From the IMG/VR virus record IMGVR_UViG_2563366974_000015: a stretch of 8,078 nucleotides of DNA, one strand, 5' to 3'. Every line of letters begins with the position of its first letter. Position 1 is the first letter of the stretch. The translations under genes were made by a program, and so were the position numbers. Positions 3,023 to 8,078 of this stretch are shown here, one piece after another. The notes under the pieces were generated by a model that was not told where the DNA came from, ran no database searches, and was given only the letters and a program-made list of their open reading frames with translations. Source of the stretch: a virus. Taxonomy: Duplodnaviria > Heunggongvirae > Uroviricota > Caudoviricetes.

Positions 3023-3032
3023 TGGAGTGGAT

Positions 3033-4619
3033 ATGGCAGCAGTAAAAATCTCAGGTGTGCTGAAAGATGGTGCGGGAAAACCAATACAGAACTGCACTAT
3101 TCAACTGAAGGCAAAGCGTAACAGCACCACGGTACTGGTGAACACGGTGGCCTCTGAAAATCCGGATGAAGCCGGGCGTTACAGCATGGATGTTGAGTAT
3201 GGTCAGTACAGCGTCACCCTGCTGGTTGAAGGTTTTCCGCCTTCACATGCCGGGACCATTACCGTCTATGAAGGTTCCAGACCAGGTACGCTGAATGATT
3301 TTCTCGGTGCCATGACGGAAGATGATGTCATGCCGGAGGCATTGCGTCGTTTTGAGGCAATGGTGGAAGAAGCGGCACGCAACGCCGAAGCCGCCTCTCA
3401 GAGCGCAGCAGCGGCAAAGAAATCCGAAACTGCAGCGGCATCATCGAAGAACGCGGCGAAAACCTCAGAAACAAATGCAGCTAACAGCGCACAGGCGGCA
3501 GCGTCCTCGCAGACTGCATCGGCAAACTCCGCGACAGCAGCCAAAAAATCAGAAACCAACGCGAAAAATAGCGAGACAGCCGCAAAGACGAGCGAAACCA
3601 ACGCAAAGTCCAGCCAGACGGCAGCGAAAACCAGCGAAACGAATGCCAAAGCCAGTGAAACTGCGGCAAAAAACAGCCAGGTTGCAGCAGCCCAAAGCGA
3701 GAGCGCGGCAGCCGGTTCTGTGACTTTAGCAGCTGGATCAGCAACTGCTGCGGCTAACAGCCAGAAAGCTGCGAAGACGAGTGAAACTAACGCAAAGTCC
3801 AGCCAGACGGCAGCGAAGACCAGCGAAACGAATGCCAAAGCCAGCGAAACTGCGGCGAAAAACAGTCAGGATGCAGCAGCCCAAAGCGAGAGTGCTGCAG
3901 CCGGTTCTGCAAGCGCGGCGGCTGCTTCTGCCACTGCATCAGCCAACAGTCAAAAAGCAGCAAAAACCAGTGAAACCAACGCAAAGGTGAGCGAAACAGC
4001 GGCTGCGAACTCAGCGAAAGCATCGGCAGCAAGCCAGACGGCAGCTAAAGCAAGCGAAGATGCAGCCAGAGAGTACGCAAGCCAGGCTGCGGAGCCGTAT
4101 AAATATGTCTTACAGCCGCTGCCTGATGTGTGGATACCATTTAACGATTCACTGGATATGATTACGGGCTTTTTGCCATCATATAAAAAGATTGTTATTG
4201 GTGACGACGAAATAACGATGCCTGGCGACAAGATTGTTAAGTTTAAACGTGCATCGAAAGCAACCTATATTAACAAATCTGGTGTGCTGACAGAGGCTGC
4301 CATTGATGAGCCACGATTTGAACGTGATGGCCTGCTTATTGAGGGGCAAAGAACTAATCTTCTGCTTAATTCAACAAATCCATCTAAATGGAATAAGTCA
4401 GGCAATCTGGAACTCACAGAAATATCCACGGATTCTTTTAATTTTACTTATGGCAGATTTACTGTACAAGATTCGCTTATTGGTACGAGAAAAGCGATTA
4501 ACATCGTCAGGCTGTCTTCGAGTACAGGGGGGGATGTTACTTGTGATGAAGAAAAGGAGGTCACTATATGCTGTGGAATAAAAAGTGAAGAAGATAATAG
4601 GGGCGGTTGTATTTTATAA
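3033..4619 (+). CDS. stf: Side tail fibre protein Stf: lambda-like N-terminal attachment domain plus fibre repeats; C-terminal part appears truncated or disrupted
   Basis: ATG 3033 is preceded by GGAG at 3024-3027; the ORF track begins at an in-frame GTG at 3027. The N-terminus MAAVKISGVLKDGAGKPIQNCTIQLKAKRNSTTVLVNTVASENPDEAGRYSMDVEYGQYSV closely matches lambda Stf as remembered. The central region is Ala/Ser/Thr-rich with SETNAK-type repeats. The ORF ends at TAA 4617-4619, but the same frame reopens after a second stop (TAG 4632-4634). Confidence 0.8.
   Translation: MAAVKISGVLKDGAGKPIQNCTIQLKAKRNSTTVLVNTVASENPDEAGRYSMDVEYGQYSVTLLVEGFPPSHAGTITVYEGSRPGTLNDFLGAMTEDDVMPEALRRFEAMVEEAARNAEAASQSAAAAKKSETAAASSKNAAKTSETNAANSAQAAASSQTASANSATAAKKSETNAKNSETAAKTSETNAKSSQTAAKTSETNAKASETAAKNSQVAAAQSESAAAGSVTLAAGSATAAANSQKAAKTSETNAKSSQTAAKTSETNAKASETAAKNSQDAAAQSESAAAGSASAAAASATASANSQKAAKTSETNAKVSETAAANSAKASAASQTAAKASEDAAREYASQAAEPYKYVLQPLPDVWIPFNDSLDMITGFLPSYKKIVIGDDEITMPGDKIVKFKRASKATYINKSGVLTEAAIDEPRFERDGLLIEGQRTNLLLNSTNPSKWNKSGNLELTEISTDSFNFTYGRFTVQDSLIGTRKAINIVRLSSSTGGDVTCDEEKEVTICCGIKSEEDNRGGCIL
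3582..3909 (+). repeat. In-frame tandem direct repeat inside stf (two 139-bp copies, 189-bp period)
   Basis: Copy 1 (3582-3720) and copy 2 (3771-3909) align base for base with about ten mismatches. Both encode AAKTSETNAKSSQTAAKTSETNAKASETAAKNSQ.AAAQSESAAAGS. Shorter SETNAK-type units recur from about 3400 to 4070. Confidence 0.85.
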
Positions 4620-4805
4620 GACCATGATGGTTAGGAGGTCAGGTTTTCAGTAGGTACTGCACGCATTAACTCAACAATTGTAATTGTTAGCAATAGAAGT
4701 GATGCAGGCCGTGTTATAGCAAAGTCTGTTAAAGATGATGTAACTGGCTGGATATTTTTTGAGGCTACAATAAATGCACATAAAACAGAAAACACGGTTG
4801 GTGGG

Positions 4806-5411
4806 ATGGTTCAGTACGCTCCTGTAAAAGGTTCAGGTACAGCATCTGGAGACTATCTGGATATCGCAACTCCACAAGTGGAAGGTGGATCAAGTGCTTC
4901 GTCATTTATTGTAACTGATATAACTGCAAGCACTCGCGCAAGCGATATGGTGACAGTCCCAATCAAGAATAACCTTTATAATCTTCCTTTTACGGTTCTT
5001 TGTGAGGTACATAAGAACTGGTATAAAACGCCAAATGCAGCACCGCGTGTTTTTGATACCGGCGGTCATCAAACCGGAGCGGCTATTATTCTTGGCTTCG
5101 GTCGTTCAACAGATTACGACGGATTTCCTTATTGTGATATAGGTTTGGCTAACAGACGGGTAAACGAAAACGCATCGCTTGAAAAAATGGTTATGGGGAT
5201 GCGTGTAAAGTCAGATCAGTCTACGTGCTCAGTAAGTAACGGGCGTATATCCAGCGAAAAGAAAGCCACATGGTCCTATATTCAGAACTCCGCAATTATC
5301 CGTATTGGAGGCCAGACTACAGCCGGGTTGCGTCATTTATTTGGTCATGTCAGGAATTTCAGAATATGGCACAAGGCATTGACTGATGCTCAGATGGGGG
5401 AGTCAATCTAA
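4806..5411 (+). CDS. LamG/concanavalin-A-like domain protein; probably the detached C-terminal receptor-binding part of the tail fibre
   Basis: 201-aa ORF from ATG 4806, but the same frame is stop-free back to 4635 with no canonical start codon in that stretch, and it is the stf frame. The C-terminal signature IRIGGQTTAGLRHLFGHVRNFRIWHKALTDAQM is typical of LamG-like jelly-roll lectin domains. The ribosome-binding site at 4806 is weak (GGTTGGTGGG directly abutting the ATG). Low-GC region. Confidence 0.5.
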   Translation: MVQYAPVKGSGTASGDYLDIATPQVEGGSSASSFIVTDITASTRASDMVTVPIKNNLYNLPFTVLCEVHKNWYKTPNAAPRVFDTGGHQTGAAIILGFGRSTDYDGFPYCDIGLANRRVNENASLEKMVMGMRVKSDQSTCSVSNGRISSEKKATWSYIQNSAIIRIGGQTTAGLRHLFGHVRNFRIWHKALTDAQMGESI

Positions 5412-5692
5412 TGAAAGATTTAACACTCAAATTTGCAGACAGGGCCGACTTTTCGGCCTTTATGGATAGCATTGGCTATTATGATGACGAGTCGATGCAG
5501 GATGATATTCTTATTGACGTGATAGGTAACGTGTACAAAGAAACCGGAGAACTGACTGAAGATGGCGAACCGGTATGTGTTAAGGAAGATGGATATTTTG
5601 TAAACGTGCGCATCATTAATGATGCAAAAAAATCGTTAATATTCGATGAATACGCGGTTGTAGTTGAACATCAACTTCGTGGCTGGATGTGA
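5411..5692 (+). CDS. Hypothetical small acidic protein (93 aa); possible tip-specific assembly factor
   Basis: The start overlaps the upstream stop by one base (TAATG at 5409-5413), suggesting translational coupling. Acidic composition (many D/E). No family recognised. Confidence 0.55.
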   Translation: MKDLTLKFADRADFSAFMDSIGYYDDESMQDDILIDVIGNVYKETGELTEDGEPVCVKEDGYFVNVRIINDAKKSLIFDEYAVVVEHQLRGWM

Positions 5693-5701
5693 GGGAGACA
5701 A

Positions 5702-6406
5702 ATGGCTACATCGACAGTAATTCCAGGAGACATCACCACGTTAAAGGGAGATGTCAGTAAAGCCAAGGAAGATATTTCCTCAATTAACGGAAAAGTATCA
5801 ACGCTTCAGGCTGATATGACCAGTGCAAAGCAGGATATCAGCACCAGATACACAAAAACTGAAGTTGATAATAAGCTGAAAAACAAACTGGAAGTGAACG
5901 CTCTGGAAAGCGGTCGTTATGGTGGAGATTTTTACCCGTTGACTGGCCGTGAAGCGTTTTATTTGTGGGGATTGGGCACGACTACAGCGGCGGCAAACCT
6001 TTATCTTAATCCTGACCCCGCAATTTCGTCTGTGCTGCGGTCAACATCGTCTATCCGCTATAAACATTCAGTAGAGACAATAGATTCAGAGCACGCCGAT
6101 CTCATTTTCAGGATGCGCCCTGTGTGGTACAGGTCACAATGCGAAAATGACAGGCGTGACTGGGGATTCTACGGATTGATTGCCGAGGAAGTAGGAGAAA
6201 TTGCCCCTCAGTTTGTACACTGGCGACCAGCTAACGAAGATGATGCACCGGAAGCTATTTCCAGCAATGGCCTTGTTGCCGAAGGTGTAATGTACGAACG
6301 TCTGGTTGTTCCACTGATTCACCATATCCAGAAGCTGACTGAAAGAGTTGATGAACTTGAGTCAGAATTAAAGTTGTTATCCGTTTCCCGAAGCGATATC
6401 GGATAA
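5702..6406 (+). CDS. Short tail-fibre-like protein: N-terminal coiled-coil segment plus C-terminal intramolecular chaperone (peptidase S74-like) domain
   Basis: Shine-Dalgarno GAGGGAG at 5691-5697 precedes ATG 5702. Candidate catalytic Ser-x-x-Arg-x-Lys motif SSIRYK (residues 116-121, nt 6047-6064), followed by WGFYGLIAEEVGEIAPQFVHW and GLVAEGVMYERLVVPLIHHIQKLTERVDELESEL, which match the conserved blocks of self-cleaving C-terminal chaperone domains of phage fibres and spikes (endosialidase / T5 L-shaped fibre type). The N-terminal region has heptad-like spacing. Confidence 0.72.
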   Translation: MATSTVIPGDITTLKGDVSKAKEDISSINGKVSTLQADMTSAKQDISTRYTKTEVDNKLKNKLEVNALESGRYGGDFYPLTGREAFYLWGLGTTTAAANLYLNPDPAISSVLRSTSSIRYKHSVETIDSEHADLIFRMRPVWYRSQCENDRRDWGFYGLIAEEVGEIAPQFVHWRPANEDDAPEAISSNGLVAEGVMYERLVVPLIHHIQKLTERVDELESELKLLSVSRSDIG

Positions 6407-6720: not shown

Positions 6721-6840
6721 GCTGTATATGCAACGGAGGAAGAAACCTCGTTGCTGGAAGCCTGGAAGAAGTATCGGGTGTTGCTGAACCGTGTTGATAC
6801 GTCAACTGCACAGGATATTGAATGGCCAGCACTGCCGTAG
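6721..6840 (+). pseudogene. tfa: 3' remnant of the tail fibre assembly gene tfa (last ~39 codons, no start codon)
   Basis: The frame opens just after TGA 6718-6720 and reads [39 protein letters not shown], ending at TAG 6838-6840. This matches the conserved C-terminal end of lambda-type Tfa proteins as I recall it. No upstream coding sequence or start codon is present. Confidence 0.7.
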
Positions 6841-6937: not shown

Positions 6938-7528
6938 TTATATGTCAGGTGTCTGAAGTTTTGCTTTGGCTCTTAAAATGGTTTGCCGCGAGGTTTTGAA
7001 TTCCCGGGCAATGGCACTTATACTTACACCTGACTTAATTCGTTCGAATACCACCTGTTTCTGTTCTTCATTTAACACAGGTGGTCGACCAAAACGTTTC
7101 CCTGCGCCGCTGGCTCTTACTATCCCGGAATGAGTGCGTTCAAGTAAAAGGTCTCGTTCAAATTCAGCGACTGCTGAAATTACGTGCATCATCATTTTTC
7201 CTGTTGGACTGGTCAGGTCAATGCCCCCCAATGCTAAGCAATGCACTCTGATACCTGTTTCGGTCAGTTGTTCCACTGTTTTCCTGATATCCATTGCATT
7301 ACAACCAAGGCGATCCAGTTTTGTCACAATCAATTGATCACCACATTTCAGGCGAGCAAGCAACCGGTTAAAACCAGGACGCTCACTGGTTGCTGCTGAG
7401 CCGCTAATGTGTTCTTCGATTATTTGCTGAGGTTTGATTTTAAAACCTGCACTTTCGATTTCCCGGCGTTGATTTTCGGTGGTCTGATCCAGCGTTGATA
7501 TCCGACAGTAAGCAAAAATTCGAGACAT
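6938..7528 (-). CDS. pin: Serine recombinase of the DNA-invertase/resolvase family (Pin-type, as found beside tail-fibre genes in Rac/Qin prophages)
   Basis: 196-aa ORF with N-terminal catalytic-serine motif [13 protein letters not shown], the KLDRLG motif and a C-terminal helix-turn-helix ([19 protein letters not shown]). Length and sequence match my recollection of PinR/PinQ. It is convergent with the fibre genes and adjacent to the tfa remnant. Confidence 0.88.
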
Positions 7529-7844: not shown

Positions 7845-8078
7845 TTACATTTTACCATTTAAATTTTGGTTGTCTTTAAGAACTGATATCGCTGTTTGTA
7901 ATAATTCTTTGTTATCCAGCCATGACTTTTTCTTTATGTTTCCTTCAATGTAATCAAGCAATGTTCTGGTATTGATAGGTCTTCCCTGTTTTGCTACTTC
8001 CACGACAGCATCTCCCAGGATAATTCTGACTTCAGGAAGCTGCGCAGGGAACCACTTTAGGGTGTCTTTTGATTTCAT
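7845..8078 (-). CDS. ynaE: YnaE/YdfK-family prophage protein (function unknown; cold-shock-associated in E. coli K-12)
   Basis: 77-aa ORF MKSKDTLKWFPAQLPEVRIILGDAVVEVAKQGRPINTRTLLDYIEGNIKKKSWLDNKELLQTAISVLKDNQNLNGKM, essentially the YnaE/YdfK sequence as remembered. It lies next to pin as in Rac and Qin. The start codon is at the window edge, so upstream signals cannot be seen. Confidence 0.75.
   Translation of the reverse strand: MKSKDTLKWFPAQLPEVRIILGDAVVEVAKQGRPINTRTLLDYIEGNIKKKSWLDNKELLQTAISVLKDNQNLNGKM

Follow-up and report, generated by a model that had tools for sequence, protein, structure and literature searches.

How a self-cleaving intramolecular chaperone (IMC) domain comes to end a protein of only 234 residues, and what is left for that protein to do once the domain has been removed, are the questions raised by an open reading frame (ORF) in an 8,078-nucleotide stretch of DNA from a virus of the Caudoviricetes (IMG/VR record IMGVR_UViG_2563366974_000015; this whole stretch is called the window below). 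The ORF runs from position 5702 to 6406 on the + strand, with an ATG start and a stop codon at 6404–6406 (coordinates from the ORF list). The window comes from a lambdoid E. coli prophage of the Rac/Qin-like kind, of which it covers the tail-fibre end, and the E. coli S88 prophage adjoining prfC is 98% identical to it from end to end. The choice of E. coli surface sugars open to a lambdoid phage is set by its side tail fibres, and work is under way to re-engineer such fibres for phage-based delivery. We consider it probable that the protein is a distal (add-on) subunit, exchangeable and the smallest known of its kind, of a side or lateral tail fibre made of two parts. It is a common, annotated member of a recognised two-part fibre architecture and no new kind of system; the 234-residue protein is 100% identical in E. 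coli strains 4/0 and B36, where it is annotated "tail fiber domain-containing protein", the label that RefSeq already gives it. The protein is built from the following parts.

5702–5749, + strand: conserved N-terminal motif MATSTVIPGDITTLKG, residues 1–16, the putative docking peptide
5729–5896, + strand: coiled-coil stalk with the heptad repeat D-[IV]-S-x-L-K-x, residues 10–65
5897–6046, + strand: small pre-cleavage tip segment (GTTTAAANLYLNPDP...VLRST), residues 66–115
6047–6064, + strand: SSIRYK, with the catalytic Ser116 and Lys121 of the S74 dyad, residues 116–121
6047–6403, + strand: intramolecular chaperone (Peptidase_S74) domain, residues 116–234
6293–6400, + strand: long C-terminal helix within the IMC, residues 198–233, from the AlphaFold2 (AF2) model

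Residues 116–234 do form an S74/IMC domain, and its Ser116/Lys121 dyad is intact, as the initial annotation had proposed for the part of the protein from about residue 116 onwards. The Pfam search that it had recommended aligns residues 116–172 with positions 1–57 of the 58-position profile PF13884 (Peptidase_S74) at an E-value of 4.4e-6 and 27.3 bits, above the curated cut-off of 22 bits, and the best sequence match among solved structures is the C-terminus of LtfA of phage DT57C (8hqz; E-value 5.5e-7 with the single sequence and 2.9e-8 with a profile). The AF2 model, which is a monomer built on a 36-sequence alignment, has a predicted local distance difference test score (pLDDT) of 82–93 over residues 125–233 or so; used as a Foldseek query it retrieves the ICA domain of MyRF (7dc3; E-value 4e-5, probability 1.0), the IMC of GA-1 (3gud; probability 0.84) and the endosialidase IMC (3gw6). 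The SSIRYK motif was confirmed by a hand check of the sequence, and Ser116 and Lys121 are invariant across 36 homologues with identities down to 28%. Both of the further blocks that had been named for the domain, GLIAEEVGEIAPQFV and VMYERLVVPLIHHIQKL, were found, and the terminal coiled coil named with them corresponds to the AF2 helix 198–233, which has a hydrophobic periodicity of 3.5 residues that is reached by 2% of shuffles. The same fold, with Ser and Lys five residues apart and a terminal trimerising helix, is present in the K1F endosialidase (3gw6), the GA-1 neck appendage (3gud), T5 pb1, DT57C LtfA (8hqz) and MyRF (7dc3). Cleavage is predicted between Thr115 and Ser116, on our assumption that the cut lies at the same place relative to the Ser as in endoNF, T5 pb1 and MyRF, and it would give fragments of 12.4 kDa (residues 1–115) and 13.8 kDa (residues 116–234).

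The characterised IMCs just named terminate beta-helix or fibre bodies in proteins that are many hundreds of residues long, whereas the mature part would here have 115 residues, with a helical coiled coil as its main element. The annotated length of the mature part stands, with coiled coil making up about half of it. Residues 10–51 form six unbroken heptads, with I, V or M at the second position and L, A or I at the fifth; the AF2 monomer has helices at residues 11–47 and 52–62, and the protein has a weak match to the tail-needle coiled coil of P22 gp26. Within the short family, the mature parts range from 101 to 140 residues and differ mostly in the number of heptads (about 3–8), the insertions and deletions being largely whole heptads. 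The tip segment is 56–100% identical within this family and as conserved as the IMC, so it is not hypervariable, and long fibres, too, have its second half (residues 93–115) conserved directly ahead of their cleavage Ser.

Scanned in full, a set of 1.84 billion cluster representatives yielded 3,633 relatives at an E-value of 0.001 or below. Among the 141 nearest non-self representatives of 50%-identity clusters, the inferred length of the part ahead of the catalytic Ser is 367 residues in the median and 115 residues or less in only six, some of which are possibly gene fragments. By this inferred length the 234-residue protein is in the lowest 5% or so of its relatives, yet it is not unique, and other S74 proteins of 180–300 residues exist. 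The protein had been called unusually short, which is right for its family and overstated beyond that.

It had also been called a standalone protein, and this too is overstated, as the gene comes third in a conserved module of genes. The module begins with a proximal fibre gene (phrog_1419), which is followed by a gene for 91–93 residues (phrog_1361) that overlaps or abuts it; the third gene starts 9–13 nucleotides later and encodes a protein with the N-terminal consensus M-[AV]-T-x-T-x-I-P-x-D-I-x-x-L-K and an S74 IMC at its C-terminal end. The third protein has 234 residues in E. coli S88 and in the lambdoid phage PhiR49_1, 346 in the lambdoid phage Tritos, 351 in the Nonagvirus ESCO3, 221 and 224 in the Drexlerviridae KarlJaspers and swan01, and 581 and 574 in the T5-like phages FGS017 and IrisVonRoten. 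The first 16 residues of the 234-residue protein are 69–88% identical to those of the Tritos, ESCO3, KarlJaspers, swan01 and FGS017 proteins and of IrisVonRoten gp24; beyond the motif, the long third proteins have 27–31% local identity to it, largely in the IMC region. Its N-terminus also matches positions 1–32 of phrog_4563 and positions 1–33 of phrog_19752. The Tritos protein (TRITO_21, phrog_4563) and the ESCO3 protein occupy the same position 9–13 nucleotides after the small gene and share about 20 N-terminal residues with the protein of the window. The 346-residue allele likewise ends in an S74 domain (SDRDLK; Pfam E-value 4.8e-14), whereas a beta-rich body of about 190 residues replaces the heptad stalk and the tip, and its IMC, with 27% local identity, belongs to another subtype.

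The same arrangement recurs in the 80 IMG/VR loci of the module. In all 77 that have downstream sequence, a motif-bearing gene lies 13 nucleotides after the small gene, its product starting with MATSTVIP or, once, with MAISTVIP; about 50 of these loci carry the type of 227–234 residues and about 27 the 346-residue type. The motif variants GDITTLK and DDIKTLK track the variant of the small gene upstream, whichever body comes after, which places recombination breakpoints right after the motif. The N-terminal 130 residues of the proximal fibre, its virion anchor, are 17–35% identical outside the lambdoids; its C-terminal 200 residues are 45–88% identical across groups, its last 400 or so are conserved, and the small protein is 41–91% identical across phage groups. 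All groups share just two virion parts, the C-terminal part of the proximal fibre and the small protein, which are therefore the likely docking partners of the third protein. Small proteins of the phrog_1361 type occur in 181 phage records, some of them from Dhillonvirus and Vequintavirinae; when viral contigs were scanned with divergent small proteins, 0 and 2 loci were recovered.

For one member of the T5-like group the architecture has been described. In IrisVonRoten (Bas32 of the BASEL collection), gp24 is a T-shaped distal lateral tail fibre with an IMC, and AlphaFold-Multimer models place it on the end of gp22, the proximal fibre, whose C-terminal domain is galectin-like (bioRxiv 10.1101/2024.09.12.612763). 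The order gp22-gp23-gp24 is the gene order of the window, and gp24 and the 234-residue protein both end in an S74 IMC. The C-terminal 400 residues of gp22 are 65% identical to the Stf of S88, gp23 is 38% identical to the 93-residue protein of the window, and gp24 is 69% identical to the 234-residue protein over the first 16 residues and 31% locally beyond the motif, mostly in the IMC region. The two differ in what stands before the IMC: gp24, with 574 residues, has two receptor-binding domains (Gp12-like and T5-like), whereas the protein of the window has a coiled coil and a tip of about 50 residues. Another two-product fibre is the branched LtfA/LtfB lateral fibre of the T5-like phages DT57C and DT571/2, in which the second product is attached via the first (PMC4728585, PMC10713586). 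It resembles the proposed system in consisting of two gene products, and the C-terminus of LtfA is the closest structure in sequence to the IMC studied here; it differs in that LtfA has its own receptor-binding part and IMC.

This placement on the proximal fibre has to be weighed against an attachment elsewhere on the virion, the protein being then an independent short fibre or whisker at the tail tip, on J or on the collar, and not on Stf. Whiskers that consist of a coiled coil and a knob are known from other phages, T4 fibritin and P22 gp26 being examples, and the weak match to gp26 was mentioned above; the gene is moreover optional, and the last 400 residues of the proximal fibre are alike in phages with and without it. 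An independent whisker nevertheless appears improbable, since the motif-bearing genes move among virions with unrelated tails and anchors, always together with the same C-terminal part of the proximal fibre and the small protein, and since the published multimer model puts the T5-like homologue on the proximal fibre.

For a distal subunit of a two-part fibre, the following course of assembly may be proposed. The IMC would bring three chains together, serve as a template for the folding of the tip segment, zip up the coiled coil and then cut itself off between Thr115 and Ser116. The product would be a trimer of 12.4-kDa chains, of about 37 kDa in total, shaped as a rod of roughly 6–8 nm with a small tip. 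Through the N-terminal motif (residues 1–16) this rod would dock on the C-terminal part of Stf or on the 93-residue protein, as a plug-in accessory and not as a requirement of assembly, and the mini-fibre would thereby add a short second contact point or an extension. Sugar binding is probably in the main a function of the proximal fibre, through its galectin-like C-terminal head. Of the possibilities that the initial annotation had named, a miniature second fibre or adaptor is the one with which the comparative evidence agrees.

Several observations weigh against a distal fibre subunit. The mature part consists of the motif, the heptads and the conserved tip of about 50 residues; it has no room for a typical receptor-binding domain, no hypervariable receptor-binding region was found in it in the short family, and the variable receptor-binding domain of a two-part module is thus lacking. 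In the AF2 monomer model, the pLDDT of residues 62–115 is below 50, as would be expected of a segment that is intertwined in a trimer. The T1-like homologues go under the name "putative lateral tail fiber chaperone" in the BASEL genome records, and a literature search found no paper characterising the short protein. There is no S74 gene in phages PhiR49_2, Lambda_2G7a and ev243, which do encode the small protein, a homologous proximal fibre and the 97-residue protein whose gene is the next one downstream in the window, and a comparison of the last 420 residues of proximal fibres with and without the distal gene disclosed no obvious extra docking segment. The mini-fibre is therefore optional and the proximal fibre does not need it; a role as an essential assembly factor of Stf, which was among the candidates, is weakened by these three genomes. 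As the phages without an S74 gene keep the small protein, the latter is, by its gene distribution, tied to the proximal fibre rather than to the mini-fibre. A literature search on the PhiR49 phages and on ev243 and 2G7a found nothing relevant.

PhiR49_1, which has the gene (locus L002), and PhiR49_2, which is without it (L095), are both recorded from host ECOR13 and have otherwise homologous stf and small-protein genes. Their names suggest a common source, and the pair would be a ready-made natural comparison of mini-fibre function.

The same genomes bear on the proposal that the protein is a trans-acting assembly chaperone or end-cap, whose IMC-driven trimer would transiently bind the C-terminal end of Stf, nucleate Stf trimerisation and so replace Tfa, with no lasting part in the virion. 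The gene occupies the usual place of tfa, which is reduced to a 3' remnant (6739–6840); the Stf of the window has neither an IMC of its own nor a Tfa partner; and the conserved mature part that is free of a receptor-binding domain, like the chaperone label of the BASEL records, would fit such a role. Against these arguments, three phages keep the fibre without the S74 gene, the same N-terminal motif heads proteins of 346–581 residues with large receptor-binding bodies, and the invariant Ser/Lys dyad points to processing in cis of the protein's own N-terminal part. There is also no match to a Tfa-type family among the Pfam, NCBIfam and PHROG matches of the protein, and a chaperone of the type of lambda Tfa or Mu gpU was rejected on that ground. 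Taken together, a transient chaperone or end-cap is unlikely. Quite unlikely, too, is the more particular idea that the IMC itself, in a minimal carrier without a receptor-binding domain, acts in trans on Stf, which it would nucleate, stabilise or cap before cutting itself off. To our knowledge, the IMC domain is known only as a chaperone for its own polypeptide; if the idea were true, an intramolecular chaperone working in trans would be an exchangeable assembly or capping factor. Judged by gene content, a role in trans cannot be a general requirement, since relatives without the gene exist.

If the protein is a distal subunit, the question arises where so short a form comes from. From about residue 25 to residue 234 it shares 52–59% identity with the C-terminal ends of fibres that are made in one piece and have 539–1243 residues, among them a lambdoid Stf of 735 residues (P0185), which starts with a phage_tail_N domain as does the stf of the window, and a fibre of 1243 residues (P0191); the one-piece fibre P0186 matches the last 30 or so residues exactly. 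One-piece fibres of E. coli prophages share with the 234-residue protein YTKTEV, GTTTxxAN...RSTSS, the dyad and the C-terminal helix. In these fibres the tip and the IMC are the end of one long polypeptide, whereas in the window they belong to a separate ORF together with a docking motif and a heptad stalk. From these alignments, the short gene looks like the terminal tip-and-IMC module of long fibres, probably recombined behind the docking motif and the stalk.

Such an origin must be distinguished from decay, as the initial annotation had offered, as a second possibility, a 5'-truncated remnant of a larger fibre gene that had acquired a new start. A non-functional leftover with a surviving ORF would explain the identity of residues from about 30 to 234 to the C-termini of long fibres and that of the last 30 or so residues to P0186, and it would suit a window in which the neighbouring stf is a pseudogene. 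It is contradicted by the selection that the gene has been under: relative to the allele of the window, the ratio of non-synonymous to synonymous substitution rates is 0.09–0.20 overall (22 distinct alleles, 21 besides that of the window), 0.10–0.25 in the mature part and about 0–0.16 in the IMC, values which indicate purifying selection on both halves of the coding sequence. The prevalence of the gene speaks against a leftover as well, with a full-length copy, annotated "tail fiber domain-containing protein", in 740 of 5,426 complete E. coli genomes, while about 40 lytic Drexlerviridae genomes (T1-like) retain orthologues of 221–231 residues at 57–61% identity; two protein clusters comprise 2,928 and 650 sequences. 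Nor does the start look new: the N-terminal motif, which also heads longer fibre proteins encoded at this position in four phage groups, and the 13-nucleotide spacing are conserved, and the whole-heptad pattern of insertions and deletions is likewise at odds with decay. The search for longer homologues, which had been recommended as a check, has two outcomes: the one-piece fibres do continue N-terminally, in favour of a module origin, and the proteins at the same position share the N-terminus of the short one, against truncation. Selection, prevalence and the conserved N-terminus led us to reject a truncated remnant, which is very improbable for this gene and largely refuted at the level of the family.

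The distal subunit is encoded in the following surroundings.

7–2301, + strand: J, C-terminal part
2369–2968, + strand: lom
3027–5411, + strand: stf, side tail fibre (the proximal fibre), disrupted; phage_tail_N domain; matches phrog_1419 positions 1–518 and 590–793 in two ORFs
5411–5692, + strand: gene of the 93-residue partner, phrog_1361, always directly 3' of the proximal fibre gene
5691–5697, + strand: Shine-Dalgarno-like GAGGGAG, read from the sequence, overlapping the stop codon of the 93-residue gene
5702–6406, + strand: IMC-ending mini-fibre gene, 234 residues
6417–6710, + strand: gene of a 97-residue membrane protein, phrog_1443
6739–6840, + strand: 3' remnant of tfa
6938–7528, − strand: pin-type serine invertase
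7845–8078, − strand: ydfK

The genes from stf to that of the 97-residue protein are tightly packed, with spacers of 9–10 nucleotides or overlaps, and a scan found no promoter- or terminator-like site between stf and the 97-residue gene; an Rfam search of the window gave no RNA family. The overlap of the Shine-Dalgarno-like sequence with the stop codon suggests that the 93-residue gene and the 234-residue ORF may be translationally coupled.

In the window, stf is interrupted by two in-frame stop codons, TAA at 4617–4619 and TAG at 4632–4634. Both lie inside a divergent stretch (4454–4814) for which no complete E. coli genome exceeds 80% identity, with flanks that are about 99% identical to E. 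coli S88, in which stf is intact and encodes 792 residues. The stf of the window looks like a mosaic allele turned pseudogene, or else like a sequencing problem; the ORF of the mini-fibre is intact, but there is probably no working Stf partner in this prophage. The shaft of Stf (about 3400–4050, + strand) consists of long repeats rich in Ala, Ser, Thr and Lys (…AAKTSETNAKSSQTAAKTSETNAKASETAAKNSQ…), with an AT skew of up to 0.58, and matches to the S88 copy reveal internal duplications of about 230–250 nucleotides that are 83–84% identical (3567–3815 versus 3756–3986).

The 97-residue protein has hydrophobic, membrane-like segments and no Pfam or NCBIfam match. Its gene is found 3' of lambdoid fibre genes with or without an S74 gene (it is also present at 3792–4085 of locus L090, at 3789–4082 of L092 and at 3513–3806 of L095, which is PhiR49_2), and the T1-like and T5-like modules lack it. 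A role in exclusion or surface modification is only a guess.

The 3' remnant of tfa adjoins the pin-type serine invertase, and no recognisable crossover sites are present in the window. The proximity of pin had raised the possibility of an invertible alternative fibre end of the type of Mu Gin, P1 Cin or e14 Pin, which was rejected for want of crossover sites: the region of 4.6–6.9 kb has no convincing inverted repeats on its two sides, and the hix/gix-like core AAACCWWGGTTT has a single match in the window, at 1642 with two mismatches, which is the chance level. To judge from the gene order, the invertase appears to have been orphaned when the fibre-end cassette was replaced.

Among the database records with related fibre genes, the GenBank entries named Campylobacter phage C11, C12, C13, C14 and C2 and Listeria phage LM 4-11-1 and 4-14-1 (H164, H165, H175–H179, H194 and H216 in our collection of hits) contain tail-fibre genes of T5-like or rV5-like coliphages, with up to 97.6% protein identity, which suggests that these records are mislabelled or contaminated.

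For the biology of these fibres, the comparison means that a conserved motif of 16 residues would let very different IMC-ending tips, of 221–581 residues, be swapped behind one proximal fibre, and that this swapping would span lambdoid, T1-like, Nonagvirus and T5-like phages. The 234-residue form would be the minimal natural example, that is, the smallest unit with a plug, a stalk and a self-removing folding domain, and as such it may offer a convenient scaffold for tests of plug docking and of the minimum of sequence that IMC folding requires.

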